Shown piece by piece: positions 1-51,849 of a stretch of 64,000 nucleotides of DNA. The number at the start of each line of letters is the position of its first letter. Position 1 is the stretch's first letter. The stretch spans positions 62,001 through 126,000 of the forward strand of contig NIVC01003789.1 in NCBI GenBank assembly GCA_002269645.1, in the 5' to 3' direction. The notes under the pieces were generated by a model. The model saw nothing but the letters and a program-made list of their open reading frames with translations, had not been told where the DNA came from and did no database searches. The position numbers and the translations under genes are program-made. This DNA is from Macrostomum lignano. Its lineage: Eukaryota.

Positions 1-2246
1 ATTTATCGCGATTGAGCAGCAGAAGCAGCTGCTGCGAGGAGGCCTGCGAGACGCTTAGCTCATCAAAGAACAGACACCTATGAATGCCCAGGCGCAGACC
101 GTCGAAGGCAAAACCCTCGTCAAGGTTCGGAGTGAATACGGTCTCACGACCAAAATGCAGGCCCACCATTGCTGATTTGCCCACTCCACTGGCACCCCAT
201 AGGTACAGGATTGAGGGCACAACTACAGTCTGCCGCATCGCTGTGCAGATTGCCTGCTGAATCGCGCAGCTTCCACCTAGCGCGATGCGGTGTGTTGCCA
301 CATTGCTGCACCCCGGCTGATCCGTATTTGAAGCGGCTGTGTCGCCGCGTGGAGGCACCTGCATGCATTGTACAGGCAGAGGGTGACATGCCCCGCACAT
401 ACTCGGCCAGACAATGGTGCTGGGGAGCAGTGACACGCCGTGCTCTTCGGCACGAATTCTGCGCATCTGTTGCACCGTTGTAAAGTAATCCATGGTCTGC
501 TTCAAAAGCAGTGGATTACCGCAGACGAGATGGGGGTCGTCTGGTCGCGGTGCCATACTCCCCAGCGGATATGACATAGCCCATCTGTACAGTTGGACAA
601 CGCGGGACAGACAAGCGTCGTCGATTTCGGTGATGGCGGCTGTGGGGTCGTGCATGGTCACCCGTCATATTTCGGCAGCTGCTGAGCGCACGCTCCTGAT
701 CTCGGCGCATGTCCATCCCTGCACCGCAAAGGTGTGCAGGCTGGAGCCAGACGCGAAGAAGGAATTGTGCATGGCATTGGATCGCAAAAATATCAACAGC
801 GATCGTGTCTTGTCCACAGGGCAAGATGGAGTCGGGGCGTACGCGTCAGTCATGTGCGCGGGAGTCAGCATAAATTCGTTATCTGCCAGGCCTTATTACA
901 TACAGTAGTAGTAGTTGTTGTTTGTTGTGGTGGCGTTGGGGGATGGGTTAAAGAGTTTCTTAAAATCGCATGTTCTACGTAGAAGATAATTGTTATGAGT
1001 TTTTCAGACACTTGTGAAACGACGCAAACACTCACTCACTCACCTATGGCAAACTGTGTCGCGAAGTCGCCGCTCCAGGTGCCGTTGATCATCAGCTTCA
1101 TCTGGGGCGCGTTCTTGACGTAGTACAGCTGAATCACCGACATTGCACGATGCGAACGCCGGCTCGCATTAGCCGAAAACATTATGTCGTTTGGTATGGT
1201 GTCGCTGGGATGCAGCGACACGGACGATGCCAGAAGGCGCGAGCTCGTTCCCTTCGGCGAGGTGCTAGCCGGCTGCTGCTGCCGTTCCTCCCCCTCTTCG
1301 TGGAACAGTGGGATCTCGCCGGCCGGGCAGGTCGTCTCTGCGAGGTTATATTTAGCTGTCGCCTCCATCTCCCTGGCCGCCAGCTCGTAGCCAGAGGCCA
1401 AAGCCCGCTCGCGCTGCGTAGCACTCGACTGCGGTACGGCTGCGGCGGTGGCTCCTGTGTCGTCGGGAAACAACAATGTGAAAATGATACTACTGTAATA
1501 TGAGAGAATGTAGCATGAGCAAAAGTGTGAGCGCGAAATGCACGTAACCTACCTCTCGGGTAGAACGTCGTCGGCGGGCGGCTCGACCGAGGTCTCGGTG
1601 AGGCTGTCGGCGTCATGAATCGGAAGGCAGCAGTAGGAGCAGCAGGGCGAGTGGTGAAGCGCCAGGGCGCGCCGATGCCGCACGGGCCGATCCTAGGCTG
1701 CCGTAGAAGGTGCGGCTTCGGTGACGCTTGAGCAGCAGCGGCAGCAGAGTCAGTAGTATGGAATGAGGGCGACGCCTTCGGAATAAACTGCAGAGTCGGC
1801 GGCTGGTCGCCGCAGCCGGCGACGTGGTCAGCAGGATGCTGCTGCTGTTCGTCGTCGCTACCGCTGCTGTAGACAATTAATCGCGGCAGCTTGTTAAGCA
1901 AGCCGCGCTGCTGGCTTGGTTCCGGCGTCTCATTGGCTATGATGCGCCGAGAGGGCGTTGCGCTGCTCGTCTGCGGCGTGCTGACATCTTCTAATAGCAT
2001 CCGCCGGCGACTGGGTTGCTGCTCCTCATGAAAAGTAGTAACAGCAGCGGCAGTTTCCAACTCCTTCTCATGACAAGTAGCAACAGCAGCGGCAGCTTCC
2101 AACTCCTCCTCATGACAAGTAGCAACAGCAGCGGCAGCTTCCATCTGCAGTTGCTCCGCCTGCCGCTCTTCAGCAGCAACTTGTTCTTCGAGCTCGAGCT
2201 GCTCTTCCACACTTAACATTATCTCGTCGTCGTCGTCGTCGAACAT
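1..2246 (-). pseudogene. Spliced SF3 helicase gene (CRESS-Rep-like helicase domain with acidic leader), copy A; one internal stop; runs off window start
   Basis: Hand-built exons 2246-1553, 1454-1044 and 891-<1 with GT-AG introns in consistent phase 1. The last exon encodes YLWGASGVGKS (Walker A, ~177-210) and CLFFDE (Walker B, ~60-80). One in-frame TGA at 665-667. Clearly homologous to 29617-31973. Confidence 0.85.
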
Positions 2247-3353
2247 GCTCACGATGCTGCTGCTGGAACTGTGTGAGACGATGCGCTATTCTTCTGCGAT
2301 CTAACCATAAAGACTGCTGCTCTGCTTCTACTAGAAGGGGGAAGCTTAAGTTTATATACATTAACCTATAAACTTAATGTATATTAATACATTATTTATA
2401 CATTAATACATTGTATATTAATGTATAACTAAAGACTAGTTATAGTCCCTAATATGAAATGCGCTATCCCATTAACCATGAGCTGACGGATGGCCCAAAT
2501 TCGGGTCATGGCTCAACACCCAAAGCCAACGGGGAATTTTTTTATATCTATGGCCAAAAAACCAGCAAAATTAGCACACCCGTTCTGGACTGATGTGGCC
2601 CGAAATCGGGTCAAGTAGTGGCCAATAAGATAGTGAAAACGCACTTAGAAAAGATAGACTGTAACAAAACAAAGTAATTTCAATTACTCATATATTTTTC
2701 TTCTGTTTAAAAGTTAACGACTTAAATTATATTAGAACATAGTGAAGTGGGGTCATTTTTTTAACTGGAGTGGTCAAAAATGGAGGGAAGCTGTCACAAT
2801 TGTCACGCTGTCACGTCATTTTCTGTAGAGTTGATTTTAGAAAACTTTTAGAAAACTGGAAAGAAACAGGTAATACAAAACAACAAGCATCTAAATTTAT
2901 TATAACTCCAAATTAATACGGAATAATGTAATTTCTATCCACGATAATGCAACAAATATATTATTTTATTTCAAGGGGCCTTGGTGCTAGGACTGAGGTC
3001 TAGGAGCTGAGAGACCGGGTCCCTGGATTGATTGCGAATCCTCGCCATCTCTAACACCCCCTGCCTCCCCCGTCTCTGCGCCTGCGGTTATCACTGTGCG
3101 AATCCGCCCCTTCCTATTGTAATTCCCTCACCTCTACCCCTGTGCTCATGACCCTACCCTCTTCTACTGTTTTCTGATTCCTACGTCTCATATTAGTAGT
3201 TTCTGTAACCAGGACAATTTCTGGACTATCTGTAACCAGGGGCTGTGGTGGCACCAATTCAAAATGAAGTCAAAATAGAAAGGCAAATTTGCGGAAAGGG
3301 TGGATACTACAATATTTTCTATACTGTCTAATACACATCGCCAGGCGTCAGAC

Positions 3354-5060: not shown

Positions 5061-5811
5061 AAAATCTCTGTGCAAACTCTACGCGCAGGCAGTCAATAAG
5101 TATAAGTGAAGTCTATGTAGAAACTCTGTGGTACTTTAGAAACTTTTCCCGGCGGGAATGGGTGTGAGCATTACAAGAAAAAATTCTAAGAAAAAATAAG
5201 AATAGAAAAAATTTGTCAATAAACTTGCCCCGCTGTTGTAAATTCGGGCATACACAGTGTATATTTGGGCAGTCGTAGACTGTACATTGTATCCGGAAAA
5301 AGGAGGCAAAGCGGGCAGCCGTGTAATCGCGGGATGCGGTGAGTATATGCGGGCACGCTATAAAGAGACTGTATAGAAACACTATAGACTATAAGATTAT
5401 TGCATTGCATAATGTGGCTGCTATAATAAAAAAAGCGAGCGAGACATATGACACAGTAGCTAATATAACAATGTAAACGTTGTATATATAAATATAGACA
5501 TTCAATTAGAGCAGATAACAGAAGCACACAATGGGATGGGAGATAGCACAATCGCGGCACAGTGCCCAGCACAATTCCCGTTAAATATACGCGTAGCTAA
5601 GCGCAGCACAACTGTATTGTCTGACAGACAGCACTACTCACCGGCTATTAATTTAGGGGAATTGTGTTAGGCACCTTGCCGTGATTGTGCTAGCACTACA
5701 GCTACTATTGCTACTAGAGTGTTAAAAGAACAAAAGTAGGTGCACACTACAACTACTACAGTGTACTATAACTAGAATTAGTAGGCGGCTGAGGTGAGGC
5801 GAGGCAGATAA

Positions 5812-5851
5812 GAAATTGTGCTTGGCACCGGAGGTGCCAAGCAGCAATTTC
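5812..5851. repeat. Palindrome GAAATTGTGCTTGGCACC-GGA-GGTGCCAAGCAGCAATTTC downstream of the tyrosine recombinase, copy A
   Basis: Near-perfect 18/19-bp inverted repeat with one bulge; homologous to 24828-24865. Confidence 0.9.
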
Positions 5852-6210: not shown

Positions 6211-7768
6211 TTAGACAGAGGCCGACACGCGGCACAATTTAGGTTTCTTACTGCCGTTGCGTCTGGCTTTGCAGCCGGACGTCGCCGCCGCCGCATCGGA
6301 CCAGTCGAACTCCGCCGCAGCCGCCGCCGCTGCACTGGACAGCAACAAGGAGCGCGTGGCGTCCACAGCAGCCCGCCGTTTCGACGCGAGTTGCGGCACT
6401 GCAACCACCTCCGAATGCCGCTGCTGTTGCTGCCGCTTCTGCGACATTGGCTGCTGCCGCTGCTGAGTCGGCAGCTCCTGCGAGACCCGAGCGGCGATCA
6501 GCTCCCGCTGCTGCTGCTGCTGCTGCTTCTGGGACGTTGATGCTGCCCGCTGCTCAATCATTCCGCTGACGGTGACCTGCATTTCTGTACGACTGGCGAG
6601 CACAGCGTTCGGTGCGTAGTGTCGCATAATCATGGTTGTCGAAGTCTCATACAGCGCCGCCATCTGCTGTATTAGATCAGGGTTGTTCGCCATGACGACG
6701 TCCTGCGTCGAGCTGCGGAACACAGTTGGCCCGACGCCTTCCCGATGTAGGATGCCAGCTGCTCCGGATTCCACAGCGTGGCTGAATGTCGACGGAGACA
6801 TACGCGTGCCATTGCGGGTGCAAAATACAAAGACCTCGTCATCATAGGCGCAGTTGCCGAAGCTCGCGCCTCGACGCCACTTGCGGAGCATCTCGACAAA
6901 AGAAGTTGGCAGACAGAGCACGCTGCAACCGACAGACTGGCGTTTCTTGTGGCAAAGCCTATCATTGTCCCGCCTATAGATGCTGTTTGGCTCCAAATAG
7001 GCCAGGCGAAGGCCGCACCATGGCTGGATGCGCAGAGGATGTTGTACCGTGGCATGCAGCGCAAACCGATTGCGCAGCTGGACCTCCTCAGCGTTAAGGC
7101 GGACACCGCCGCTGCCGCTCAGCGCCGCGACAGTTTCGTCATCGTCTTCGTCATCTTCGTCAACCTCGATATCGCCAGACTCGTCGCCGTCACCGCCGCC
7201 GCCGCCGCCGCCGCCGCCGCTGCTGCCGCCGCCGCCGCTACATCGGCACAACCGATGGGTTAGCAGCAGCGGACTCCAGCCGTTGACGCTTCGGCTGCAG
7301 CGCTGTCGGGGCACTGGTGAAGGCCTCCTCGTCGGCGAAGAGTTCCAGCTTGATAGTAGCCGCGACCGAGCTTCCTTCGTTGAACGAGTCATCTTCATCA
7401 CTGCTGGAAGGCACCACGACGTTTGACACCTTCGTGATGACGCATTCATCGTCCGCGGCTGCGTTCGATTCGGCCTGGGTCGCTGGCGCGAGCACGACAG
7501 GTAGCACTTCCGGCGCCGCCGTAGCAGCCGCCTCAGCAGCGCTGCAGGCAGCCAGAAGTTCCGCGTCGAAGAAGACGTCTTCTTCGTCATCGTTAGCCGT
7601 TGGCTGGTTTGATTCGGTGGCGGCAAGATCGGCTGCAGTCGCCATCAGGTCGGCATCTTCAGCTGCATAGGCAGCTTCGAAGGCCGCATCGATTTCCGCA
7701 TCGGTCAAGGGGTACCACACGACCGAGTTGTTGCTGTTGTTGCTGTTTTTGTTGTTGCTATAGCTCAT
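6211..7768 (-). pseudogene. Tyrosine recombinase (catalytic domain present, core-binding domain apparently deleted) with acidic leader, copy A
   Basis: ORF 6211-7626 contains HPLR (Arg I), HKK (Lys), FVFCTRNG, PTVFR (Arg II) and TSTTMIMRHY (Tyr nucleophile). The acidic leader ORF 7238-7768 joins through a frameshift near the GCC repeat. Compared with copy B it lacks the zinc fingers and core-binding region. Confidence 0.8.
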
Positions 7769-14884: not shown

Positions 14885-15820
14885 AGGAGGATCTGCAGCG
14901 TCAGAAACAGCACCTCAAAGATTGGGCACCACGCTTAAAAAGGCCCTTTTCCGAGCACAATCTCCCTGGCGTCGATACAGACGAAAACATCGCACCTGTA
15001 TCCATCGACCTGAACTGTCCGTGACAATGTATCGGCTTCAAACTTGTCTTGACACTTTCTGAACAAGGAAGGGGACATCCGAATCGAGAAGACAATTGCA
15101 ATTTTGCATGTTCGAATCATATTAAATTCAAGTGGAAGCAAAAATCATTTCGTAATACTCACATACCAGGTACTGATGTTGTAATACGATAACAACAGCT
15201 TAATTACTTCCAGCGCAGAACTATTAGCTTATTTTCCCGTAGTCTAACCAGGCTTGTATCGATAGAATCCAGGACAAGAATCTTTCGTCGCTTAGCACAC
15301 ACAACGATAAGATAAAAGTGCTCCTTGTGTAAAAAAGGATTTAATGTCTTATTCAAGCCCTGGGAAATATACAGTGAACTAGAAAATTACGAGCTAAAAA
15401 CAACTTTGCATTTGAGAAATGCTAGAGTTACTACGAATTTACTTTTACATACATGTTACAAGAAAAAGCAATTATTCGTACCTTATACACTAAAGTCCTT
15501 TTCGACAAAATTTTCCTCTTAAAAGTAATATTGTTATTATTGATATCCAAAATGCTGTGAAAGTCTCCCTTGCCAATGACAAATTCGTTGGTGCGCCTGA
15601 AGTAAGTGCTGTGCAGTAAGCCGGTAATATCTACACCTTTTTCCATTCTATTTTGGCAAACGTGCAATCAAAGTCAAAATCTTTTCATTCAATTCAGACA
15701 GTTTATGGTAGTTCTTGGCCGGACGTGCATTCAATTCCGACAAATGTGCTTTCAAAAGCGACAATTTTCAAACAAAGCAAACAAGCTACCACGAGAAACC
15801 GACACTTTGCAATCAATTCA

Positions 15821-16126
15821 AACAATTTGCAATCCATTCCGACAGTTGGCTATGAATTGGCTTTTTTCTGTCCTCCTATCTATGGCTCATACTAATACGC
15901 TCGTAATGCCGAATGCAAAAGTGAGTGACAACGATCGGCAGAGGCTCATCGACGCACACGCAAACGGAGACGATTTTGGGCATCTTGCTCGAGTATGTAC
16001 TCCAGTGGCTTGTCTAAATAGATTGAAATTTGTCGGAATTGATTGGAAATTTCGCAGTATGAGCCATAGATAGGAGGACAGAAAAAGCCAATTCATAGCC
16101 ACTGTCGGAATGGATTGCAAATTGTT
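15821..16126. mobile_element. Non-autonomous TIR element piece: ~72-bp inverted arms around a Tc1/mariner-like N-terminal HTH stub
   Basis: Arms 15821-15893 and 16056-16126 are near-perfect reverse complements. The enclosed + strand text is MPNAKVSDNDRQRLIDAHANGDDFGHLARV. Confidence 0.55.
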
Positions 16127-16135
16127 CCCTTTTGT

Positions 16136-16633
16136 CTATGGTTTCCGGCATTCATACTTGCGGTAACAATTTAATTGTTTGTCGGCTTTTTTCGATTGTT
16201 GCCGGATTTCAGACGAATGTATTTGGCTATCAAAACAAGGAACAACAATAGCAACACGGCGAAAGTGCTTTCGAAGGGATGAATAGAAAAGCCTCAGATA
16301 ATCGTTCAAAAATCGATCCGGAACACGCTCAAACTCCTGGCAGAGCCCCTTCTCGTTGAGGAACTGTCGGAACCTTGCCACGTGAAGCTTCCGTTGCGTC
16401 TCGGTCGATTTCGGCACTGAGTCACTCTCAAGTCGGTCCAACATTTCCAGATCTTCGCTACCTAGCTCAGGCAGCCCGTTGGAACTGGACGACGCATCCA
16501 GGTTGTCCATCTCCAGAACGTAGCGCGTGCTCGACTCTCGGGTGACAAAAGCCAACTCGTCCGTGGAGAGTCCACATATTTCTCCGCCAGGAATGTTTGC
16601 GTAGCGAATCATAGCTACTTTTCCTATTTGCAC
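16136..16633 (-). mobile_element. Crypton-like tyrosine recombinase N-terminal fragment
   Basis: SVPKSTETQRKLHVARFRQFL..LNDYLRLFYSSLRK matches the Crypton core-binding pattern. Bracketed by GTCTATGG (16134) and CCATAGAC (16869). Confidence 0.65.
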
Positions 16634-16908
16634 TCCGAATAGGAGAATTAATTCAAGCTCAAAATCAACTTGAGAATTAACTCATGGCAGCCAGGCTAGC
16701 TGTCTTCACTGTCCTTTAAATTTGCCATAAACGATTAATTATCTCTACAACCCTTTCATTTAGAGAGCAACTAAATTTGCCATTGACGATTGATTATCTC
16801 TACAACCCTTTCAAAGCGCATTCCGGCAACAATCGCATTTCATACTCAGCATCCGCACTATGTCTGGGCCATAGACAAGGGAAGTCAAAAGGGTACAATA
16901 ATGACATG

Positions 16909-16998: not shown

Positions 16999-18254
16999 TA
17001 TATCGTTACATTGTTTGAATTGATCGCAAAGTGTCGGTTTTTCGTGGCAGCTTGTTTGCTTGGTTTGAAAATTTTCTAGTTTGAAAACTAGACGGAGTGG
17101 CCGAGGGCGGCTATAGGCTGCAGTTAGGCAGACGATGGAGCGGCGATGCGCTGAAGCGGCGAGGCGCTGGTGTCGTTCAGGCATTGCTGATGATGATTGG
17201 CGGTAACAGACCGCGGACCGGCAGACGAGCTCACTTGGGGAGCTGAGATAACTTGGCGGTAACAGACCGCAGACCGGCAGAGGTTCGTCTTATAGACGAA
17301 TAGGTCAGAGCAACGTCTGACAGCAAGTCCACAATAGGACGCTTGAGAAGAAGCGCGAAAAGGTTTGAGGATTCTCATGCCGAAAACCGCTTCCTTATAT
17401 AGTCTTCCCAGCCGCCGCTCCAAGGTCGTTTCCATGACTCCCTCTCTCTGATTGGCTGCCGGCAGAATGACGTCATAATGAGTCATGATGAGAAGCATGA
17501 GAACGGCATAGCAACATAAGAAATGGGAAAATTGCGCAATCCGGAGGTGGGGTGGGGGGTAATTGGCGCAGCGGGAGGTCGCGAAAGTGTTGCGCAAGCA
17601 AACATTGAGAACAATGGGGCTGGGGTCGAGGACAAAGGAAATAGAAAACGGGAATAATTGGGGAGAATCGAGAACAATAGAAAAGCAAACATTGGAGAAA
17701 ATGTGATAATTGGGTACGAAAACGAGAACAAAAGAAAAAGAAAATCGGAGAAAATGTGATAATTGGGTGCGAATAGGAGAACAAAAGAATCGAAAACGAG
17801 AACAATAGAAGCGGAGGTGGGGTGGGTGTCGCATGAGAAATTTGGGGAGGAGAACAATAGCATGAGAAAAGGTTGCGCAAGAGAGGGGGATGAGTCATCG
17901 ATGAGTCATCGAGGGGAAAGAGGGGTCACACGACTTGTGTCACCGTTTGAGAGTTTGAGAAGGGATGGGGGAACGGTGAGCGCACGAAGTACTGTAAGTA
18001 GACACTGAAAAAGGAGGAACAGCGCAGAAAAATAGTGCAAAAAGAGACCAAAAGATGGGGGACAGGAGAAGTACATAACGAATAGGGTAGAGCGCATAGG
18101 AGATAGGGTAGAGGGGGAGGTACAGAGAGGGACAGGGAGCTCCGGAAAGGCATGTGTGGCGGCCAGGAAGACGGAACCGAGGCAGCAGGAGGTGCAGCAG
18201 AGCGGGAATCTGCAGGCCTGGTCAGAGACTGAGCAGTCGCTCAGTGACGTAGCT

Positions 18255-24220: not shown

Positions 24221-24827
24221 ACTGCGTCGCTATCCGTACTGACTTACCTCATGCTGCTTACGTTTGCTGTTTTTTCATATTTGTCTAAAACTTGATAAAG
24301 CCACGTTAAAGCGAGCGTTAAAGTGTCAACCCCAGCCTGTATATGGACATTCAATGTTATCCTGCCGAGTGCGTTAATGTGGGCCATAGAGAGTGCGTGA
24401 ATGCGGTTGCGGCCATAGACAAAAAGAGTAACTATGTTTTATCATAGAACTTGAAACATAGAGGAGATTGAATACATGTATATTATGACTGAAGGTGGTG
24501 TATACGACAATTGCAAACCAAGCAATTATATAGAAAAAGAGTAATAGCACAATTGCGGCAGTGTGCGTAGCATAATTCCCTTTAAAGAGTATATAGATAT
24601 AGATATGTATATGTACCTGTAGCTGGTACTTATAAAAATGGCTGGCTGGCTGGCTGGCTGGCTGGAAGGCTAGTGGCTATATTTTCAGGAAATTGTGCTT
24701 AGCATAATTCCTAAATAGTGCGCGACATACCAGCTAGATAGATAGCAAGCAGCAAGTAAAAATTATCAATATGCAATTGCACAGCTATTTCAATATAGTT
24801 ATAAATGCCATGCAACATTGAGCGCTA

Positions 24828-24865
24828 GAAATAGTGCTTGGCACCTCGGTGCCAAGCACTATTTC
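24828..24865. repeat. Perfect palindrome GAAATAGTGCTTGGCACC-TC-GGTGCCAAGCACTATTTC
   Basis: 18-bp perfect inverted repeat with a 2-nt centre, flanked on both sides by AGCGCT; homolog of 5812-5851. Confidence 0.95.
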
Positions 24866-25260
24866 AAAGCGCTTTGAACCCTTCAACCTGCAGCCATGTC
24901 CAACCAACCAGCCGACGAAGTAGTAGCTACTGCTAATATTAAAACCAACACTATACGACTATAGTCTAATAAACGCTAGGAAAAATGTTATAACAATGGG
25001 CACGTAAACAATAAGAGAAAGGGATAGAACGCATAACAACGCGCGCAATATGAGGCGCAGATGCATTGTAATTATGAGATGAAAATATTGAAAAATATTG
25101 GGGCCAACATACATATAAAGGAGAGATGAGACAGTTACAACAAAAAAGAGAATCATCTACATTTCACTATTACTAATTAATTCAGTTATGTTAATAGCAG
25201 CACTTATTAATTAATTAATTTACCTCAAGAGACACTCTAAGTTTGCATAAAAATTTGCAG

Positions 25261-25436
25261 CAATGGTAAAGCGCACATTTACTAGATTTCATATAATGGT
25301 AAAGCGGTATTTAAAGTTTTAACGTTGTGGTAAAGCGGCCAACAGTTGAAATTTGCAGACAATGGTAAAGCGGTACTATTTAAGTTTAAACGTTGTGGTA
25401 AAGCGGCAAACAGTTAAAATGGTAAAGAGGCGGTAG
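25261..25436. repeat. Array of RTGGTAAAGCG motifs (iteron-like)
   Basis: Six near-identical motifs about 25-35 bp apart, with a ~66-bp higher-order duplication. Confidence 0.8.
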
Positions 25437-25471
25437 ACGCGCAGCATGCCTTGAAATTGATGCTTGGCACC

Positions 25472-27420
25472 TACCCACAATGTCCTGCTTGGAGCTCCGA
25501 AAAATATTCGGGCAGACGCCGGAACGACCGAGTATAGCTTTGGCATGATCGACAACCGCCTGGCTGAAGGTGGAAATGGACATCCGCTCACCTCGGTTGG
25601 TGCACAGCACAAACGGCGAGTTGGCGACGCCGACCATGTCGTTGCAATGACGGCCGTTTCGCCAGGTGAGCAGCAGCTCAATGAATGCGGTCGGCACTGT
25701 GAGAACGCTGCAGCCGACAGACTTTATTTTCTTATGGCTGACCTGGCGACCAGGCAGCCGGATGGTCGAATAGCCGTTGTCATGATTGTCGCGCCGACTG
25801 GCGCTACCCGGCCGGATGTGCGCTATGCGGAGACCGCGCCATGGCCGGACGCGCAGCGGATGCATCGCAGTGGCATGCAGAGCAAATCGATTGCGCATCT
25901 TAACAAAGCTGTCCTCGTCGGCTGGACCAGAGGCGACCAGTGCGGCGTAGTCGTCCAGGATGGTGCGCCACTCCACCGGGGTTAACAGCTTCTCTTTCTT
26001 TCTGTCGTGGTGCAGCGGCGCATCCAGCCTATACTCAAGGTCGTGCGCTGGCGAATAGTTTTGAGCCGCTACTGAAACAGCTTGCACCTGTTTTCCAGCT
26101 CGGCTGCAATGTCGGCCGGCAGTTGCATGCGCTCCACCAGCGATTGAAGATGCGCGCGGTCGTGCTCAACGTAGGCTTGCATGTACTGCATGCATTTTAT
26201 TAGCGCTTGCGCCCTGTTTCTAACTGTGCCGGAGCTATTGCTGGTGGCTCGAACCTCCGTTGCGGCGGTCGTTGGGTTGGCTAAGCAACAGACTAAATCT
26301 CGCGGCCTCGACGACTGGACAGCTCTTGTCGGCGGCGCCGGCTGCTGCTGCTGCTGCTGCTGTCATCTTTGAGCAGACCGACAAGATCAGCAAAAAGGTG
26401 TCAATGAGAGCGTCAAGATGGCCGTCATGGGCTGGGTTGCGCACGCCTGTTGCATCGTTCCAATACAATGACTGGATTACACGCAGCTGCTTTATCAGCG
26501 GAGCATCGGCCGAATACTGCGCCAATAGCGAAGAATGCCGCAGTGTAATCACAGCCAAGGCATCACGCGCCGCGATCGCCTCCTTGGCTGACATGGTCGT
26601 CGTCTTTGTCGTCGTCTCCGCTGCACCGCCGACGCTGACTGCCGCAGTCGAAGACGCGCTTGTCGCCGCCGTCACCGCCGCTACACCGCTGGCACCCGCC
26701 GCGATCGCCTTCTCGGCTGACATGGTCGCCGACGCCGCCGCCGCTGCACCGCCGCTGCTTACTGCCGCTGCCACAGTCGAAGACGCGCTTGCCGCCGCAG
26801 ACGCCGCCTCCGTTGCTGCACCGCTGGCACTGTCATTGTCGTTGACGATGTTGACGGGTTGATCACCAGATGGCATAATGACGTGGTGGCAGAATATTCT
26901 GTCAACTTAGCGCCGGCGGCGACCAGTTTTGCGTGCTTAGCGGCATGTTTCGTTGCGTCTCGGTAATAGCAACGACAGTCAGCGCAGTAGGTCTCGCGAC
27001 GGACTCTCTTGACGCTGACGCTGCTACTACTGGCACTGCTGCGGTCTCCTGTTGGGCGCAAAATCAGGCTTCGCCACAACCAGGTAGTGCGCCTGTCCAG
27101 CGTCCAGTCGTCTGTCGTCGCGTCGTCGCCGCCATCGCCTACCGGCTGCTCCTTGATCCATGAGACATGTTTCGCCGCAAAGTGAGTCTTCAGGGCGTCG
27201 ACACGCATCACGGCGGTGCAGTCCGGCACAGGGCATTTTCGAGCGTAGCGGATATTTCTGTTCTGGTTCGGCTTCTCGACAACCGACGGCGGCGGGGCAT
27301 CTGCAGCAGTGGCGGCGGTGGTGTCGAAGCCAGCAGCTGCCGAAGACTCGCTTGCAGCGCTTTCTGTGTGTGTGCGGATGGATTGTGTATTGATATCGAA
27401 ATCAGTTTTTGCTGCTTCAA
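25472..27420 (-). pseudogene. C2H2 zinc finger plus tyrosine recombinase gene, copy B; frameshifted; lacks the C-terminal Tyr segment
   Basis: Fingers CPVPDC..LKTHFAAKH and YCADCRCYYRDATKHAAKH; core-binding-like SGTVRNRAQAL (~26230-26100); catalytic HPLR, HKK and CPNIFRSS. Homology to copy A ends at QDIV (~25475). A possible 5' exon lies at 27914-27746. Confidence 0.8.
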
Positions 27421-29616
27421 ATGCTGCTTCTTATTTAATAATAACTCCTATAATCAAAAACTAAAAACTACAAAACCTGTTGCTGCTGCTGGAGGAGACA
27501 AAACAGCTGTTGATGCTGATGACCGCCGCATGCCAGGAGAATTAGACATCACGGCCGAGTATTGGACGGGCCGAAAGCTGATAGGTCGCCGCTGTCTGCA
27601 GTGGTATTAAATGCAAAGTGAGATCGTCTTTTGTAAATTTAGGAAGGTCAACTTAACGGAGCCTAACCGACAGAGTAGCTTAGCTTATTAGAGAAAAATT
27701 GGAATAACTCTTCTTCTTTAAATCACATAGATCGTTAACAATCACCTGATACTGCTGCTGCTGCTGCTGCTGCTGCTGCGCTCGCTTCGTCACAACACAG
27801 GTCTGCTGCTGCTAATTCTTCAGCTTGATGGTGATCACTAGAGTGATGCGGAGGAGCTTCGAAATCGTTGCCGTAGCCGTCGCCGAAGAGGAGCCGCAGC
27901 AAACTGTCAAACATGATTTTATACGATTCCTTTATTATTACAGTCTTGAGCCTCTATAGAAAGAGCTGAGAGCTAATTGGCTAAGCTTTGTGAATTAATT
28001 ACTCTGTTTGGCTCAGTCAAGCTATTTTAAAAATTTAACTCCTTTTTCTTAACCTTTTATAAAGATAGTCTGAGAGAAGCTGGGACGAGAGGAATGGCCA
28101 TAGACAAAATATTCCAGTGTCTAAGGCCCACCTCAGTGACACCGCTTTAACGCAATTCAAAGCCCAGTCTGTACAAGCTGACGGTTTATAGACCGATCGA
28201 TCGATAATTTGGTTGGCCATAGACAGTTGCAGAAGATCTAAACTCAGAAAACCTCCCGTGTACAGGCTAAATCTTTAACACTGCCGCCGATTGCCGATTC
28301 TATTATAATGTATAGACTAGACTAATAATGGCTAATACAATTAAAGGCAGACAGGATTAAAATAACCAAAGCTGCAAATCCCATACAGTTATTCATTCGT
28401 CAAAAGATGACACAACAACTTTATGAAATTGAAAATTGATAATTTAAAAACATTGCTGAATATATGGATGGTCAGAATGTTGAAATGTGAAATTGTAGAT
28501 ACGCAGCAAAAACTGCAACAAAACTGGTTTCAACAACAACAGAGAAAAGCAGAAGAAACAACCATCAATCTGAATATAGAAAATCAATCGATCAATCTTG
28601 TAAAAACAAATCCACTTCCGGATTGCAACACCGTCAGTCCAAGTCATTAAATGTGTGAGTGCGTGCAGCCAAAGCTGTTGCCACACTACCCTTCTGTTAA
28701 GATGATAGAAAAAAATGTCTATTATATTTTTAGGCAATTCTGCTTGGCACAAATCCGAAATTGTGCTAAAGACCTATACGACCAGTCATTTTACGGCACT
28801 TGACTAGCATAATTGCGTCCCAATGCTTGGCATAATTCCTATAAAATAGTATACTTATATATCGGGGGCTATATCTGCATGCACAATATTAATTGTTTGC
28901 CGATAACTGTCGTCGCAGTCAATATGCATTTCACTGCTTTTATTTGCATTTGATGTAATCTATTTTAGGGCTACACTGCCTCTACATCACTGCTGTCTTT
29001 GATTTTGCGATTTAGTAGTAGCGATACTATTAGTCAGATAGAAGCACAAACCGCAGCTGCTGCTATTGAGACATCTATCTATCTTGATTGACAGGGAGGG
29101 AGCTGCTAACATGCTGCTGGCTGATGCAAACACACACAATATTAAAAAGATAGAACAGAACAAAAACTTGAATGCTGAAACAATTAAAGAGCCGCAGCTC
29201 ATATCGTATTCAACTAATAAAACTAGCTAATCCACTCTAGCCCTCCCTAACCGAGTATAATTATTTGTTAGATTTTAGATGCAACAACATTCGTTACCTG
29301 TGTGTGTGCTTGCGTGCGTGCGCTTTACCTTTTTTGCGACTGATGGACCTAGCGTGCGCCACCAATAACTTGTTTAACAACAACAACAACAACAACGTCT
29401 TTGATTTAGTAAATCTATTTTTGTAACTATGACAATTAACCTACTGCATAATCTTAGATGGGATTCTAATTTTGAGAAATTTTTGTGCTTCCGCTTATAC
29501 CTAATCTGTTATAGTCAACTTAAATTTTTTGATTCAGCATTCTTTTAATTAGTCTTTTTGGTCTATTGGCGGCGGCGGCGGCATCATCAGCGAACCCCAG
29601 CTAGCTGCCTGGCGAC

Positions 29617-31973
29617 CTAGACGTTGGCGGCGGCGTCCGCGGAGCCTTCCTGCTGGCAGCCAATGCATTCAAAGACGTTGTGCTCCATATGGAAGCACCT
29701 TCCACTGGCGGAAACGCGCCGCACAAAGTCAACTGGCAATTCTGCTGGCGGCACATGGCCCGCAAATATGATACTGCCGACCCATTCGCTCTGCACATGG
29801 GCCTTGTGCTTTGCGTTTATGACAAATTTATCCCTATTCATGAGCAGCAGAAGCTGGCCCTTTGCCGCCTGTACCGGCTGCAGTTCGTCAAAGAATAGGC
29901 ACTTGTGTATGCCTAATTTTAATCCGTCGAACGGAAAGGCTTCGGAGAGGTCCGGCGCGTAGACAGTCTCTCGGCCGAAATGTAAGCCGACCATCGCCGA
30001 CTTGCCCACTCCACTGGGGCCCCACAAATAAATTATTGCTGGAACAGCCAGTCCTTGTCGCATGGCTGTGTAAATTTCACGCTGTATTGCACAGGCGCCA
30101 CCAAGCGACAGTCTGTGTGTTGTTGTTGCTACGCAACGACGCCGCATTTAATGTCGCCTTCGACGCCACGACAGCTGGCAATTGGCAGACGCCGCACATG
30201 CTTGGCCGTACCAGATTGGCCGGCATGGGGCTGATGCCTAGCTCCTCCGCCCGGATGCGGCGCATCATCTGGACAGAGCTGAAATAGTCCAGCGCCTTCT
30301 AAGCAACAACGGATTGCCGCACACTAGCTGCGGATCGTCGGGCCTCGGCTGCATACAGCCCAAAGGGTAGGACATGGCCCACCGATACAACAACACATTC
30401 CTGGACAGGCAGCCGTCGTCAATGTCCGTGACGGCTGCTGTCGGGTCGTTAAGTGTCACGCGGCGTATCTCCGCGTTTGCACTCCGTGCACTCCGGATCT
30501 CAGCGTTTGTCCACCCTTTAACGGCGAACGCGTCCTCGCTGGACCCCGACGCAAACAGGCTGCGCAGTCTGCCTATCAGATCTACTGTGCTATGTAGAGC
30601 ATTGGTGCGGACAAAGACTAGCACAGACTTGGTGCCAGCTATTGGACAGCTGGCAGTCGGGGCGTATGGGTCAACCATATGGGTTGGAGATAGGATAAAT
30701 TCATTCTCCGCTAAGCCTATAGTTTTAGCATTATTTAAGTCAATGTTGTTGTTGTTGTTGTTTTTAATTATTGGTTGGTTTGGCAATTTTAGTTTTTTGT
30801 CGGGGATGGGGTGGGTGTGTGATTAATTTAAAATGGTGCGCAAAAAATCGCAATAATACTCAGCTACATGATTGTTTTTTCTACCAAACCAAGATACATG
30901 CATGCAAAATATGTATGTATATGAAAGCGTTTTTACTCACCAATTGCCAGTTGTGCCGCGTAACTGTTGCTCCATGCGCTGTTCAGCAGCATCTTGAATT
31001 GCGGCGCGTTGCGGACATGGGAGAGCTGGACAACGGACATTGCCCGGAATGCCCTTCGGCTTGTCTCGGCCGCGGCGGTGACGCTCCGGGAAACAGCCTC
31101 GGCCGGATGCAGTGGCACGCGTGGCGCCAGGAGCCGCGATGTGGTGCACTTTGGTTGCTGTTGCTGCTGCCGATGGTCGTCCTGCTGTACACCCAGTGCC
31201 GATGCAGCGTCATCGGCATCAGACGACAAACTGTTATTGGCGCCGTCGTATCCAGCTGTTGCCTCATGGGCGGCCGCAGCCATCGAATATACTGCTGCTG
31301 GTTCTGTCGCAGGCGACAGCGGATGCGGAGCTTTGAATATAGGTTCAGCAGCATAACTTGAAGCAGCAGCAGCTTGTCGACGTTGGTCGCTGGTAAACAA
31401 CGAGTATGATTTAACGGACGGTGACGGAGTCCTTGAAGCCGCAAAAGCGAATCGAGCCGCTGTCGTCGATCCCGCAGGTTGGGCGAAGGCGAAAGGCCTG
31501 ACTCCGACTGCCGCCCCGATGATGCGCGGCTGCCGTTTCAGTGCTGGCTTTGGTACTGTTGACGACGCTCCACTATTGCTGGAGGCAGCGGCGGCGTCCC
31601 TATCGGTGGCGATGCACTGCACCTTGGCCGCCGGAGACTGATGTTGCTGTTGTTGGCTCGGCAGTTCGCGTTTCAACGATTGTTGAGAGTGCATCTGTGC
31701 CGGTTATGTCTTGTAGGCAGAGCGAATCGGCGTGTCAGCATCGTCGTCGTCGCTGTCCGGGACGACGATGCCCGTAATGGTGCAATCGGCATCGACGTCA
31801 GCGTCGTTGGTATTCAGCGCCGGTGGCGGCGATGAAGCTGGGGTGTCTGCGGCGAACAGAGATGCCGCCTCCAGTTCGGCGAACGCCTCCAGTTCGGCCT
31901 CTTCGCAGGCAGCCAGTAGATCATCGTCTAACACAAAGTCGTCATCATCGTCAGGAAAATTGTTGGTTGCCAT
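29617..31973 (-). pseudogene. Spliced SF3 helicase gene, copy B
   Basis: Exon 31973-30941 (in-frame TAA at 31704), phase-1 GT-AG intron 30940-30717, exon 30716-29617 with two frameshifts. Motifs: Walker A GPSGVGKS, Walker B LFFDE, motif B' VINAKHK, motif C IIFAGH, Arg finger FVRR. Confidence 0.85.
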
Positions 31974-33149
31974 TATTCGCGATGAAGCTGACTACAGAGC
32001 TGGAACGGCGGGCTGTCTTTTAATGGATGGATCATTATTATGCCTTGCACACTGTTTTCTGTTCCTGCTTTTCTTTCTTTCTTTCTTTTTCGGGTCACGG
32101 ACATTGTAGCTAGACGTAGCTAATAGGACCGGGGGCGTAGCCCCATGCAGCCGGGGCGCTGACCCTGCGCGGGCGGGCAGTAGACGGCGGAATCCAATTT
32201 GCGGCCTGCGGCGGGTGGCCAGAGAGCGTGGGGACCCGAGTCCCGGTGCGCAGGGCTCCTCCGCAGACCGACTTACGCTGTAAAAACCGCCATCCACCGC
32301 CAACCCAACGTTGGGGGACAGCTCTCCCAGGCTGCATACCCGGAGGTGAGACCAATTCGTCACCCCGTCGATGGCAGGGACGCACGGAGCTCCTGCCACA
32401 TTGGCGGGGTGTCCAGGGGCGCGACGTGGACGCTGGTCTCGTGCCACCCTCTGTTCCTGCTGCTGCTGCTGCTGATGCGATATACATTAAGGAAAAAGTG
32501 CTGCTAGGCTATAGCTACTGATTATTTGTCTATGGTAGAAAGACTCAGTTTGAGACTAGCTAAAGCAATATATATATATTTTTTAAGGGAAAAATGCTAG
32601 GCACAGCTGCCGCGTTGTGCTATTAATAACATTTTTATACTAGGTAGTCTATGGCATGGCGTGTGAGTAGTGACTGACTGCCGCATTAACGCACTCTACC
32701 GCTTTAACACACTCGATATCGCTTTCACGCAGGAGCCGAATTAACGTAGCCGCGTTAACGCAATTTTTACCGCTTACACTCAGAAGCATATTTGTCAACG
32801 TTTGTTTAAAGCTTCCTAACTAGGTAAACTAATTGTAAGGTATAGCAATCTGACCCTAACCTGCCTAATAATATTACCGTTAGTAAATAACAACTGTGTT
32901 TTACGTTTGTTATGACAACAATAAACGTTTACCGTTTTTTCTTACTTGTCGTCGTATATTTAAAGCATCGTAACCACGTAAACTAATTGTAAAGTAACAA
33001 TTTGACTGTAACGTAAGTAACAATATTAACAATAACAAGTAACAAGCGTGCTTAGCAGTCCGAAAACCTATAATAATCTTTATATTGGCCCCTAAAGTTG
33101 CATATACGAAGCAGACGCATCCCGGAAGTCGCTTGTGTGCTGTTGCATC

Positions 33150-33553: not shown

Positions 33554-34834
33554 GTCCGTCTGCTTTCAGCCGTATACAATATACGAGCTATGCTAGAAAT
33601 TAGCTAAATTAATATTACTACAGGACGAAAATACAACAGTTTCGTAGCTTCAGAGTTGATAGAAAATTAACCTTTCGGCTGACGTTTGTATATAACTAGT
33701 CGAGCATCTGACGAAATATTTTTCAGCAAAGACGTAGAAGTGCTTAGCTCTGTAGTCATTAGATCGTCCAGCAAGTAGCATTTGTCACCTTTTGATGGAA
33801 ATACATAAGCGACGTAATGACCTTCGTCGACTCGTTCTCCCAGGTGCACAATAACACTTTGGAGGCAATAGCGCCGATTGTTATAGTCAATTTCTGGCGT
33901 AAAATCGAAGCCCACTCGGTTCTTGACAATAGTTGCCTGGCTTCTCAAGAGCCTGTTCACGACTAAGCACAGGAGAGGTGGCGCATTTTGAGGAGTTCTG
34001 CTATGAACGCAGCTACTTGTCTGACAAGCTGTGCATGTGATGTCATCAGACTCGTCGGGTCGTAGTGCCGCATTCACAAGCTGGATCAGCTGCTGTCCTT
34101 CAACTGGTTGAACCACCACGAATGTTTCATGCGAACTTTCAGTAGTCGCGGCATTATTGCACCGGAGACAAAGGTTGGACCCGCCGAGCTAAAATAATAA
34201 AGACAAACAGCTGAGACGGAATTGAAAACATCGATTTAAAGGGCCTGTACTCTCTTACTGCCATCTATGCTGTATGTGACCGATCCAGGATTCATATTTG
34301 TTTACATGTATTTGACTCTTTTTACTACATTAGTTCCCTATGATAATTGTCATTTCAAATGGTTTCCGTTCAAAAGTAAAGCAAGTTTCTGTAAGTGTTT
34401 TTGAAATTTAGATACGAGCGTATTACCTGAATTCTAAACTGGCGACGAATAGTCTGCAGCTATTGAGAAATGAGCACGAAAAATTCAAAGCAGTCGTTAT
34501 ATTCGTTGGTATTTATTTGACCAGCCGTACAGCATTCTTCCAATGCAGTGTTGTACAAATCTTCGCTGAATCCAGATCCGCTCGAAATGTTGGCCAAGAG
34601 TCGTATAAGAAAGGACGAATTCACTGCTGTTTCAGAAAAATTTCTCCCTGACAATGCCGCACCAACTGCGTGAAGACTGGCGTTGAACCAACAGAGTTTT
34701 CCATTACGATTGGGTAAGCCGAATGGACGATAGCCTGATGTCGATAGCGCCGAAGCTTCGACAGTAACAAAACTGGCGACATGATCAGAACAATCAACAA
34801 AAGCATGAGCGGCTGGCTAGTTTATCACTGTTGG

Positions 34835-35063
34835 CAGTGGCGGATCTAGGATTTTATTTAAGGTGGGCGGTCCAAGTTAGGTGCGCCAACATGAGTATGA
34901 GGGGCGCCAATTTTTAGGCTAGGGGCACAAAAAATGCGTGTAGGGGGCGAAAAATAAAGTTTAAAGGGCGCAAACTTAGGTTTTTTGGGGGGCGCAATAT
35001 GTTTCATCCAGCTGTTTCGGGGGGCGGTCGCTCCCCCCGCCCCCCCCCCTAAATCCGCCCCTG
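34835..35063. mobile_element. hAT-type MITE, 229 bp
   Basis: TIRs CAGTGGCGGATCTAG and CTAAATCCGCCCCTG; 8-bp TSD ACTGTTGG at 34827-34834 and 35064-35071. Confidence 0.9.
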
Positions 35064-35915
35064 ACTGTTGGTATTCGTGAAAACTCACCATTGCTACGGT
35101 TAGCAGACTCACAAGTTATAGATTCATGTGCACGCTCATGACGCCAAAGCTTATTTTGTTCGATGCGTTCCTCTCGAGAAAATCCTTTGCGTCGACGTCC
35201 CTTATTCGATCGAGAAGCTTTTAAGATTTTGCCGATTCCTACAGGCTTCTCGGCAACTCGGGGCAATCCAATTTTTCGTCCAACCGCTGCGATATGCGAA
35301 CACGATTGAGCAGAGACACAAGAACACGAAGCAACGCCGTTGCTAAATGTCACAACATTATTTCGTCCGGCAACGTTAGTCACTATGAAGTTACCAAGAG
35401 TAGGGTTGAATGAAACTTTATGTTGCTCACTAAGCAAGCTGATCCGTGTCGACTGCTCGCTGTCGTCTAGATCTACATTAACTCGCACAGATTTGTGGCT
35501 AGATTCTCCAACGGGCTGGTGAACAGGAGTACCAGTAGCATCATTGGACAATGAAGGCCCTGTGCCACCTGACTCATTGCTGTTGCTATCACAGAAACTC
35601 ATGTTGGGACGTATGACAGTCACTTTAATCGCACCAATTTCTCGAATTTCTCGAGTCGCCGAAGTCTAAGAGTGCCGGAGTTGAATGTTCGCGGCTATTT
35701 GTTCTAACGACAACAGTGGAAAGAGTGTTACAGTTTCGGGCGACTGTTGTAGATGTTGGAACTCAGGCTTTAGTGTGTAGTTTCCTTGGCCACACAAACC
35801 ACGAAGAATTTCGTTCCTGTAGTATCGAGAAGTTTGGTAAAGTCCGACAATGCAGTCATCGACTGTTGCATCCTTGAATTTTAGCACACGCTTGAGCATT
35901 GCGTTTATTGATTCT

Positions 35916-38900
35916 TGTTGTGCTTTTGGCTTTTAGCCTTTAGCAATTGTCACTAGCGGTCTGCTGACCTCTGACGCGTCTATTATTTATTTCATAACTC
36001 AATAGCATGGTTCAATTCATCAACGCAGTCGCGTAACAAAAATGTCTATGGCAAAGCCATCAACCCACAACACCCTCCCTCTTCTATAGGTAGGTGTACA
36101 ATTATCACTCAGGTGCGATAAAAAATTCTAGTTTTCTTGGCCAAGCGTTCGCTTCGCCTGGGTGACGGCTTGGATTGAACTCCAACCTCAGTCTGTTGCT
36201 GTTGTGCTCTCTCAGCTTGTTCTGTTCCCGGTAGTATCTCAGTGTCTGTCGATGACGGACGCGTCTGTTGGCCGTCGTCACTTGGACCGTTGCCACCGGG
36301 CTTGGAATCCCCCATTTCCCTAGTTCCGTGAGCCTCAGGTACCTCACCGATTCGTAGTTGATCGAGGTGGGTCTTTAGATTTCGTCCAGTCTCTGTGGTG
36401 ACGACTGCTGTGTTGCTGCCAAGCATTTTGGCGAATCTCACAGTTCGTGGCTCATGAGAACTCGATGCACGGTAGATGAGTGATTCTTCTGGGATCCACT
36501 TGGACTGAGTGCTGCTCTCCGAGATGGGGAGTCTTATTTGTCTGCCGTTCAACAACTCGGACGGTGATGCTTGCTGCTTCCCTTTGGCAGCTCTGTAGAA
36601 CAGTAGAAATCTGTCAATACTTCTTTGGGATAAACCATTGGTCTTGATTGTCTCTTTGACGGTTCGCACCATTCGCTCTGCAATGCCGTTGCTCTGTGGA
36701 TGGTAGGCGGGCGTTGTGATGTGCGAACAGCCAATCTGGGTGAGCCAGCCGGTCACCGCTTCGCTCACAAAACTAGGGCCGTTGTCTGACACGAGACACT
36801 TGGGCACCCCCTGTTGTGAGAACAATCTTCTAAGTCTGGAAATGACTGTGTCGGCCTTCATGTCGCTCGTGATGAAGACTTCCGGGTAGCTCGAGTGCGC
36901 ATCCACAATTATGAGTAGGTACTTGCCCTCTATCGGACCGGCAAAATCAATGTGCACTCGCTCCCAGGGGTTGTCAGGTTCTGGCCACGAGTGCCGAAAG
37001 TTCTTATTTCTGGACTTGTACGCGTTGCACACGTTGCATCGTCCAATGTAGTCAGCGATGTCACGGTCCATCTGTGGCCACCAGAACTGTTCCCTCAAAA
37101 TTGACTTTGACTTTTCCACCCCAAGGTGCGTTGAGTGTACAGCTGCCAGGGCAGTTTCTCTCAGGACACGAGGCAATACAATTCTGTTCATTCTGTAAAT
37201 AATTCCATCATTGACAGTTAGCTCATCTTAAACCTTCGAGTAGCCGAGTAGGTGTGGGTCGTCAAATAGATTATTGTTAATTATGGCTGCGCCCAGGCAT
37301 CTGAACTCCGGGTCCTCTCTGGTTGCGTGTGCAATGCGATCCAGCTGAATTACTCCCGGGTTGTCAGCTTCGAGGAGTCCGATCGATGCTGTCTGTGCAT
37401 TCGGCTTAGCGGGCACCAGTCGAGATAGCGCATCCGACAGCATTAGCTTTGATGGTCGATACTGTATGACATAGTCATAAGCAGCTAGCATGATTGCCCA
37501 TCGTTGTAGTCGAGCTGAAACTCTGGTGGGCAGCTGTTTGTCTGGCGCGAATATGTATGTGAGGGGCCGGTGATCAGTTATCAGTGTGAACCTCCGGCCA
37601 TACAAGAACCGATGGCATCTTTGAATGCACCAAACCAGTGCCAGGCCTTCACGCTCTATTTGCGAATATTTTGTTTCGGCGTCAGACAGAGTCTTGCTCA
37701 TGTACAGCACGACTTGACCGCTTTGTGTCAACACTCCGCCCAGAGCTCGCTGAGAACTGTCGCATTCCAGTTCAATGGGCTTCTCCGGATCAAATATTTG
37801 AAGACTCGATTGATCAGAGAGAGTGACCTTGATTTCGTCAAATGCTATTTGACACTCCTTTGTCCACACGAAGTCCTCATTTTTCTTTCTTAGTCGATTG
37901 ATAGGCTTGGTCAGTGCAGCTAGGTTTCTGATGAACCTGCCGCTAAAATTTACGAGACCCAGGAAAGATTCAAGCTCGCCAACGTTCTGCGGTGGTGTCA
38001 TGTCCTGGATTGCCTTCACTTTGGCTGGGTCCGGCTTGAGCTGATCTCCTTCCAATAAGTAGCCTAGAAACTTGATCGAAGTCTTGCGGAATTCACTTTT
38101 CGCCGTGTTGATCTTCAATCCTTGCTGGTTTAGTCGATGCAATACTTCTGTCTCACGAACTGCCAATTGTTCTACGCCTTTGCCGCATATCAATATGTCG
38201 TCTACGTAGGCAATGACGCCAGGAATTCCTTGTAGGACTTGGCTAATGTACCGCTGGAAGATCGCAGGTGCTGTTTTCACTCCGAACGGAAGCTTGTTGA
38301 AAGCGAACATCCCAAATGGTGTTGACATTACTGTCAGCTCTTTGGAAGCTTCATCTAGTGGGATCTGGTGATAAGCTTTCTCTAGGTCCAGACGAGTGTA
38401 TATCCGGCTGCCAGCAGCAGTTGCAATCACTTCGTCAGGTGCAGGCATCGGATATGAATCGTTGATAAGATGAGAATTGATTGTCACCTTGTAGTCGACG
38501 CAAAGTCTGAGCTTTCCAGAAGGTTTCTTGACCACGACAATTGGTGAGGCCCATTCACTGAACTTGACGGGCTTGATGGTGTCTTCTTCAAGCAACCGAT
38601 CGATTTCATCCTTGACTTCCTGTCTGAGTGCGAAGGGTAGCGGCCTGGGTTTGCAATGAATTGGAGTGGTTCCTTCCTTGATCTTAAGAGTTACTGGTGG
38701 AAATTCGCATGACTGGGTTGCCGATGTGCAGCTGTTGTCTACAGCGTTTAGCGTGAAATTGAGCTTGTCTCGGCCAACCAGAACAAACTGCGATTCCACA
38801 ATGAAGAATGTGATTGGAATGAACTCGTCATTGTACTCCAACTCAGTGTCGTGTGTTCCAAAGACCTTCATCTGCGTATCAGCGTATGTTGTCAGAACAG

Positions 38901-51830: not shown

Positions 51831-51849
51831 GGCAGTCTCAGCAGTGGCC

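Follow-up and report, generated by a model that had tools for sequence, protein, structure and literature searches.

The palindrome at positions 24828-24865 of the window, which is the whole 64,000-nucleotide stretch of Macrostomum lignano DNA analysed here, is, judged from its sequence, a dyad of two outward-facing box units that is internal to an element and specific to it. It may well be part of the replication-origin or control module of an element for which excision as a circle is predicted, a reading to which we assign an even probability. The origin reading is supported by the linkage of the palindrome to the element, by the location of the element ends elsewhere, by the unit that the palindrome shares with other sites of the element and by parallel change in a distant family. 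An earlier sequence-only reading had proposed a resolution site, a hairpin-telomere site or a replication origin; among these options the origin fits best, whereas the hairpin telomere is little supported.

The elements concerned form a family (family I) of ~8 kb that encodes a predicted Rep-like helicase of the SF3 type and a predicted zinc-finger tyrosine recombinase (YR). Searches gave 30 matches for the YR-like ORF and 41 for the helicase-like ORF, and mapping of the fetched DNA revealed a common layout on a single strand, with an acidic ORF, a P-loop helicase ORF, a zinc-finger ORF and the YR ORF followed by the palindrome. The suspected link between palindrome and element was borne out when the motif was collected from the 764 Mb of the genome. 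A palindrome pattern that allowed 0-14 nt in the centre matched 11 loci, compared with 0 for a control pattern, and 10 of the 11 are inside the ~8-kb YR/helicase elements, as are all matches to the 17-bp arm (23/23). Eight of the 10 element-linked palindromes lie 3' of the YR and two lie 3' of the helicase gene; two of the 10 are 99.9% duplicates of the 5812 locus. The eleventh match (C2540) was treated as unrelated: its arms reach only 10 bp, 28 kb contained no element gene, and its DNA did not match the elements. A dispersed independent MITE, the possibility against which the sequence-only reading had set its own proposal, fails on the same counts of 10/11 and 23/23 matches within elements. 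C1024 and C1651 also carry a palindrome behind the Rep gene, so its occurrence does not depend on the YR gene.

Within the window, the 10-bp terminal sequence of the element has exactly two copies, at 24276 and 32787, and an empty-site joint connecting 24275 to 32787 with one 10-bp copy kept was present in contigs of all four runs. The element thus runs from 24276 to 32796, and its end is 543 bp away from the palindrome; the corresponding distance in C957 and C1267 is 637 bp. The terminal direct repeats measure 10 bp (W2), 5 bp (C1267) and 2 bp (C957), and the arm motif is absent from all these junctions. The idea of a lox-like integration site is contradicted by element ends that lie 543-637 bp beyond the palindrome, at junctions without the arm motif. 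C957 and C1267 are 98% identical along 8.2 kb and have different flanks, which indicates recent movement of the family. The C1024 element, which carries two palindromes, is flanked by a 132-bp direct repeat with 98% identity (G000 C1024:126152-126283 and 137061-137190), compared with 2-10 bp elsewhere. Short, subfamily-specific repeats point inward at both element ends (L158:8845-8996; window 25264-25420 and 32690-32780) and are candidate arm-type sites of the YR zinc finger.

Transcription and splicing of the element are evident from GT..AG joints in three of four runs. An intron within the first ORF was visible in three of the four runs, and a GT..AG joint connected the zinc-finger and YR ORFs in one of the four. 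A GTGAGT donor closes the first ORF in all five copies checked, so that this ORF probably represents the first exon of the helicase gene. No other recognisable ORF and no capsid ORF was found in the 8.1-kb C957 copy. The possibility that Rep and YR are cassettes of a segmented element that move independently was considered and rejected for family I, in which partial copies break at unrelated points. Among the joints listed for the contigs, which drop rare forms, no back-going, strand-change, circle-junction or snap-back joint was found at the palindrome. Cover in runs X17 and X20 stops near the palindrome bin, which may be due to simple-repeat matches.

Table 1. Coordinates of the palindromes, boxes, genes, ends and scars in the window.
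Feature	Position	Strand	Remarks
Palindrome	24828..24865	.	two 17-bp units facing outward, 4-nt centre; 18-bp perfect arms
Palindrome with 6-bp outer stem	24821..24873	.	stem 24821-24826/24868-24873 past 1x2 internal loop
Homologous palindrome, second element copy	5812..5851	.	5-nt centre, 1-nt bulge; outer 8-bp stem 5802-5809/5854-5861, different sequence
Bipartite box	24545..24577	+	faces 24691 box, AT-rich tract behind
Bipartite box	24691..24723	-	faces 24545; convergent pair adjoining 24828 palindrome
Bipartite box	5544..5576	+	convergent pair adjoining 5812 palindrome
Bipartite box	5660..5692	-	faces 5544
Bipartite box	28736..28768	-	upstream of ZnF-YR gene
Bipartite box	28805..28837	+	back-to-back with 28736
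Bipartite box	32590..32622	-	upstream of Rep-like gene, element 5' end
Terminal direct repeat, 10 bp, 3' end of element	24276..24285	+	inferred YR crossover
Terminal direct repeat, 10 bp, 5' end of element	32787..32796	+	second copy
Remnant 3' end of nested inner element	25247..25459	-	subterminal repeats like C957 subfamily
Filler at ~1370-bp deletion junction	25460..25474	+	12 nt match left arm of palindrome; scar, not site
Broken zinc-finger YR gene of inner element	25476..27262	-	frame breaks; C-terminal part with catalytic Tyr lost to deletion
Broken Rep-like SF3-type helicase gene	29620..31703	-	exon 30936-31703 ends at conserved GTGAGT donor; helicase exon 29620-30717, 3 stops
YR catalytic half, copy owning 5812 palindrome	6556..7089	-	within ORF 6211-7644
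Rep-like gene, third adjacent copy	2..2285	-	copy continues left of window; palindrome collapsed (G000 C3789:52885)

Each arm of the palindrome is one unit, composed of GTGC, three bases, GCAC and an AT-rich tail, which we take to be NFI-like and RFX-like in appearance. The same unit recurs in a bipartite box of 33 bp, in which two units are placed 23 bp apart with an AT-rich tract behind. The 847 kb of fetched DNA contained 50 bipartite boxes, all at element loci, and the reversed control gave 0; a matrix seeded with the arm found 45 matches in 48 kb of element compared with 11 in 166 kb of other DNA. In family I, boxes precede each gene, together with a TATA-like tract, and form facing pairs beside the palindrome. 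The DNA around the two palindromes had been described as diverged, which is correct in part, but the box constitutes a second conserved motif that flanks both of them. In the same way, the partial half-sites noticed at ~28735-28750 and ~28820 are indeed related to the arm, but they are units of the two back-to-back boxes at these positions.

The inverted repeat itself is perfect over 18 bp around a 2-nt centre, as had been reported, and is the longest in the window, where the next best reaches 13 bp. Its homolog at 5812-5851 shares 90% identity across 40 nt and has a 1-nt bulge, and the folding z scores against 200 shuffles were -7.5 and -8.1 for the 24828 and 5812 palindromes, respectively. 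The absence of a CRESS nonanucleotide loop was confirmed as well: the loops of family I are 2-12 nt long and unrelated to each other. The centres, likewise 2-12 nt in length, are asymmetric in 6/6 family I palindromes and symmetric only in family II. From the division into 15-bp arms around an 8-bp core, the inverted arms can be retained, with 17 bp conserved compared with the 11-13 bp or more expected of a YR core site, but the core, counted in the way of the earlier reading, measures 6, 8, 8, 9, 9 and 16 bp in the six aligned family I palindromes.

Arm differences between copies had been said to keep the pairing. This is true among the inner pairs, from which alone covariation was read: 15 of the 17 inner pairs are invariant across six palindromes, and two are altered on both sides. 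However, template switching, which is known to cause arm homogenisation and spacer inversion, yields the same pattern without selection (PMC8604942, excerpt). The outer stems past the small internal loop are specific to subfamilies, with cognate runs of 4-9 bp and mostly ≤3 bp across subfamilies in a matrix that excludes the row and column of C1024_3p. Runs of at least 5 bp have a chance probability of 0.008, and one cross pair, formed by two GC-rich flanks, reached 5. The W1a loop is the reverse complement of the C957 loop. Because arm covariation and loop flips are both known from template switching, they indicate that the arms pair at times and do not imply that pairing is selected. A miRNA or other RNA family was also considered and rejected, the five Rfam matches all being far under the gathering score.

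Both palindromes were placed downstream of recombinase genes by the earlier reading, and both do lie 3' of YR-like ORF remnants, but the palindrome at 24828 is not cognate to the adjoining YR. This YR (25.5-27.3 kb) shares 69% identity with the C957 YR, compared with 49-51% for the YRs of C1567 and C709. The DNA surrounding the palindrome, in contrast, shows 80-86% identity to C1567, C709, C283 and C1298. The element is chimeric: the palindrome is part of an outer element of the C1567/C709 type, whose YR has been replaced by the inner YR together with its 3' end. The sister copy C4730 retains the box pair and the end that belong to the inner YR. The supposed half-site at 25453-25471 is no site in its own right; comparison with the sister copies C4730 and C796 identified it as a 15-nt filler (25460-25474) at a ~1370-bp deletion; it also does not fold (z +1.0).

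The palindrome was expected to be conserved in other copies, and here the expectation failed: five of the six lineages that share the 24828 region are damaged at the palindrome. The five lesions comprise two deletions, a fold-back rearrangement, a loop longer by 8 nt and a deletion with insertion, and the fold-back product was found in C283/C1298. In family II, two of the four copies aligned across the palindrome are deleted there. The family I subfamilies that retain the palindrome have 37-69% YR identity. That so fragile a palindrome has persisted across deep splits suggests that it has a function while the element is active.

Family II was reached via weak helicase matches; its Rep is ~30% identical, and its zinc-finger YR gene is convergent. 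Between the genes of family II lie two facing box pairs and a palindrome, 46 bp from the YR stop, with 24-bp arms that are 92% complementary, 4 nt between the units, an 8-bp core and a perfectly symmetric centre. The family II unit has two central bases instead of three, the arms of the palindrome carry this unit of the family's own, and the palindrome had two genome-wide matches, both in family II elements. No box was found upstream of the family II genes. In both families, family-specific iterated boxes, which are putative binding sites by their sequence, stand beside the hairpin. Since box and palindrome change together between the two families compared, both are likely bound by a single protein that the element encodes. 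A third, more distant group with Rep-like and YR genes (G000 C2367, C157, C267, C2362, C228, C2093, C4612) lacked a palindrome of this kind in the scanned stretches; its YR units (~4.7 kb) are separate from its Rep units, which are arranged in tandem arrays with satellite-like repeats.

In the YR, the residues R, HK, R and Y are invariant in comparison with three outside ZnF-YRs, and both His positions are substituted. A search among 1.84 billion representative proteins gave four matches to the YR, and searches of viral contigs, metagenome contigs and PDB sequences gave none. No Pfam family matched the YR, neither DUF3504/QRICH1 nor GCR1_C nor protelomerase, and Phage_integrase was present in 15% and 57% of the members of its ESM Atlas neighbours. 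Beyond this genome, the YR lineage is represented by P0002, P0003 and P0005, zinc-finger YRs whose contigs in other data sets measure 4277, 4056 and 2006 bp. In the helicase, Walker A and B are conserved (alignment A5), and the position of motif C reads AGH. Motif C is expected as TSN. The match to the Pfam family RNA_helicase was sub-threshold (E 0.055-0.07), while the ESM Atlas neighbours included CRESS Rep clusters at 0.94 and also parvovirus NS1. Inspection of alignment A5 by eye, for which the circovirus PCV Rep motifs HLQGF and YCSK were used for comparison (PMC2690592, excerpt), revealed no counterpart of His-x-His, YxxK or the catalytic Tyr in the N-terminal part of the Rep. Neither Viral_Rep nor Gemini_AL1 matched any of 10 Rep-like members, and homologs of the Rep-like protein were not found among proteins of near length, PDB sequences, PHROGs and viral contigs. 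The AlphaFold models were unusable, with pLDDT values of 35 for the Rep-like protein and 42 for the YR, and fold searches with these models as queries returned nothing at E≤0.001; the ranking of Cre by Foldseek for the YR, at E 0.44 on the pLDDT-42 model, was not counted. An ORF located 5' of the YR half at 6.6 kb was considered as a fused first exon of Rep and dismissed, as blastp support was absent.

In the mechanism that we propose, the YR would recombine the short direct repeats at the two termini and thereby excise a circle. Once a family I element is circular, its palindrome and boxes would lie upstream of Rep, within a long intergenic region. The N-terminal domain of Rep, without HUH catalytic residues, may act as origin-binding domain only, similar to polyoma large T or papilloma E1, which combine SF3 with an inactivated HUH (PMC6668415, excerpt). 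The Rep-like protein would bind the units, with head-to-head loading of the helicase at the dyad and melting of the AT-rich stretch that separates facing boxes; the boxes ahead of the genes may serve autoregulation. Arms that are able to pair would allow template switching to maintain the symmetry and to flip the loop, and the site would decay in dead chromosomal copies. An equally good candidate for binding the unit is the zinc finger of the YR.

Polyoma and papilloma origins contain a dyad of binding units that adjoins AT-rich DNA. The element also resembles the polyoma large T and papilloma E1 systems in having a predicted SF3 helicase behind a putatively HUH-derived domain without catalytic motifs (PMC6668415, excerpt). 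It differs in the absence of a capsid ORF from the 8-kb copies, in its YR gene, in chromosomal integration and in introns in both genes, and a sequence or fold match to these initiators was not found. With CRESS origins, the site has in common a unit in the stem arm and nearby tandem repeats that are family-specific and located by TATA-like tracts (excerpts of PMC2690592 and PMC10548238). Iterons together with a hairpin make up geminivirus origins (PMC10548238, excerpt), and circovirus Rep binds both the repeats and a stem arm (PMC2690592, excerpt). CRESS viruses likewise encode a Rep-like helicase. In contrast to CRESS origins, the site has no nonanucleotide loop and a much longer stem, HUH/Tyr motifs are absent, and it resides in an 8-kb element with a YR and no capsid.

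Cryptons are similar in their YR gene, their proposed circular intermediate and their short terminal direct repeats of 4-6 bp, compared with 2-10 bp here (PMC3212892, excerpt). The present elements are distinguished from Cryptons by N-terminal zinc fingers on the YR, by the lack of a DUF3504/QRICH1 or GCR1_C match, by the additional Rep-like helicase gene and by the internal box-palindrome module; the excerpted Crypton paper makes no mention of a helicase (PMC3212892). The palindrome shares inverted arms, a short asymmetric centre and an adjoining YR gene with loxP, FRT and dif, but it is not the crossover point, its core varies in length and copies of its arm unit, arranged in direct tandem, make up boxes all over the element. 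Replitrons and Helitrons resemble the present elements as Rep-type transposons of eukaryotes that possess hairpins or short terminal repeats (PMC10288648, excerpt). Both, however, have an active HUH transposase and Replitrons have no helicase, whereas integration is predicted to depend on a YR here and the hairpin is found 540-640 bp inside the element end. A preprint on small eukaryotic DNA viruses ties YRs to PolA and AEP replicases (10.64898/2026.10.13.758929, excerpt). In the literature outside Repbase and subscription journals, we found no element with this pair of YR and Rep-like genes. The site resembles a known kind of origin, but tested features set it apart from CRESS origins, lox-type att sites and protelomerase targets.

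The main rival of the origin reading is an internal res/lox-like resolution site for the YR, because the units are separated by a centre of 4-5 nt in five of seven palindromes of both families together. The boxes would then be accessory or arm-type sites bound by the zinc finger, and the site would resolve circle dimers or invert segments. Core lengths of 6, 8, 8, 9 and 9 bp in five of six family I palindromes and of 8 bp in family II are near the 6-8 bp typical of YR sites (PMC3212892, excerpt), and the YR keeps its invariant R, HK, R and Y. The position of most element-linked palindromes (8/10) 3' of the YR gene and the filler at 25460, which shows that the arm joined a rearrangement, point in the same direction. 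Nevertheless, we consider a resolution site unlikely: the crossover points lack the arm motif and differ by subfamily, so that one YR would need two core specificities, and a circle with its own att site would need no second one. Moreover, the core varies within C1024 (6 and 8 bp in its two palindromes) and between the close sisters W2 and C1567 (8 and 16). Transcription control, in which the box would be a promoter element and the hairpin would mark or insulate the 3' end of a transcription unit, could account for the box with TATA-like tract before each family I gene, for the palindrome behind each gene of C1024, for the family II palindrome between convergent genes at 46 bp from the YR stop, and for the transcription and splicing seen in three of four runs. 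It is nonetheless improbable in view of stop-to-palindrome distances from 46 to 941 bp, of family II genes without a preceding box, and of facing box pairs, which make poor promoters. In addition, one contig from a presumed RNA run, which may be DNA, reads through the palindrome.

A nick or termination hairpin of rolling-circle or Helitron-like type, at which an active HUH Rep would work on single strands, is very improbable. Loop sequences are not conserved, alignment A5 lacks His-x-His and the catalytic Tyr, and the element ends away from the hairpin, even if the strong hairpin with outer stems that are subfamily-specific yet complementary, the reversal of the loop between W1a and C957, the fold-back product in C283/C1298 and the resemblance of the Rep to CRESS Reps would suit such a mechanism. 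The flip/flop orientation of the loop between subfamilies and the perfectly symmetric centre in family II could alternatively suggest a protelomerase site, at which the YR would linearise the circle into a plasmid with hairpin ends. We regard this as a yet more remote prospect, given that the centres in family I lack symmetry and measure 2-12 nt, that no Pfam family matched the YR, that spacer inversion is known from template switching (PMC8604942, excerpt) and that a snap-back joint is absent among the joints listed for the contigs. The least probable explanation of all is a functionless palindrome that arose by inversion of one box unit and whose symmetry is kept by template switching. Loss or damage in most chromosomal lineages and the documented neutral homogenisation of arms (PMC8604942, excerpt) are in line with it, but the palindrome persists over subfamilies at 37-69% YR identity despite its fragility and reappears, in altered sequence, in family II, whose Rep is ~30% identical, and 15 of 17 inner pairs never vary.

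Extended to the whole element, the origin reading would describe a capsid-less integrative replicon and a new class of animal DNA transposon, equipped with a papilloma/polyoma-style initiator and a ZnF-YR, which would excise as a circle, replicate from a box-palindrome origin that co-evolves with the initiator and re-integrate at short homologies. We put this forward tentatively, at somewhat below even probability. The palindrome itself is ordinary, and the element that it marks is less so, combining Crypton-like integration with a virus-like replication gene and being recently mobile and transcribed; moreover, the cis sites of two distant families change in step. If the origin reading is true, transposition in animals would gain a route with self-amplification, and the element would be an independent instance of a Rep that no longer nicks and acts as an origin-binding helicase; polyoma- and papillomaviruses are thought to have arisen through such a step. 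If the integrative-replicon reading is true, the element would be an animal counterpart of bacterial integrative replicating elements.

The neighbourhood of the palindrome is rich in mobile elements. Two more copies of the family lie in tandem to the left of the 24828 element (window 2-7644 and G000 C3789:52500-62000), and the presence of three diverged copies within 45 kb of the window hints at clustering or at insertion into each other. A remnant of a piggyBac-like transposase (window 3354-4382; DDE_Tnp_1_7, E 3.6e-37) is situated between two element copies. Crypton-like remnants were found in or beside the elements at 8640-8987 and 16136-16681 of the window and at G000 C1024:126360-127590. 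The C1024 remnant matches QRICH1 (E 9e-7), the two in the window have no such match, and the one at 16136-16681 sits within 77-bp inverted repeats (15750-15826, 17010-17086). Two Gypsy-type LTR retroelements with RT, RNase H and integrase occupy 36109-40071 and 44290-56138; the LTRs of the second are ~92% identical, and it contains an insertion with another RNase H ORF (52131-54158). The first Gypsy element is flanked by stretches with a ubiquitin hydrolase match (UCH, E 5e-11) and weak MULE matches (33667-35665 and 40459-41211), and these UCH/MULE fragments are possibly the target into which the 24276-32796 element inserted.
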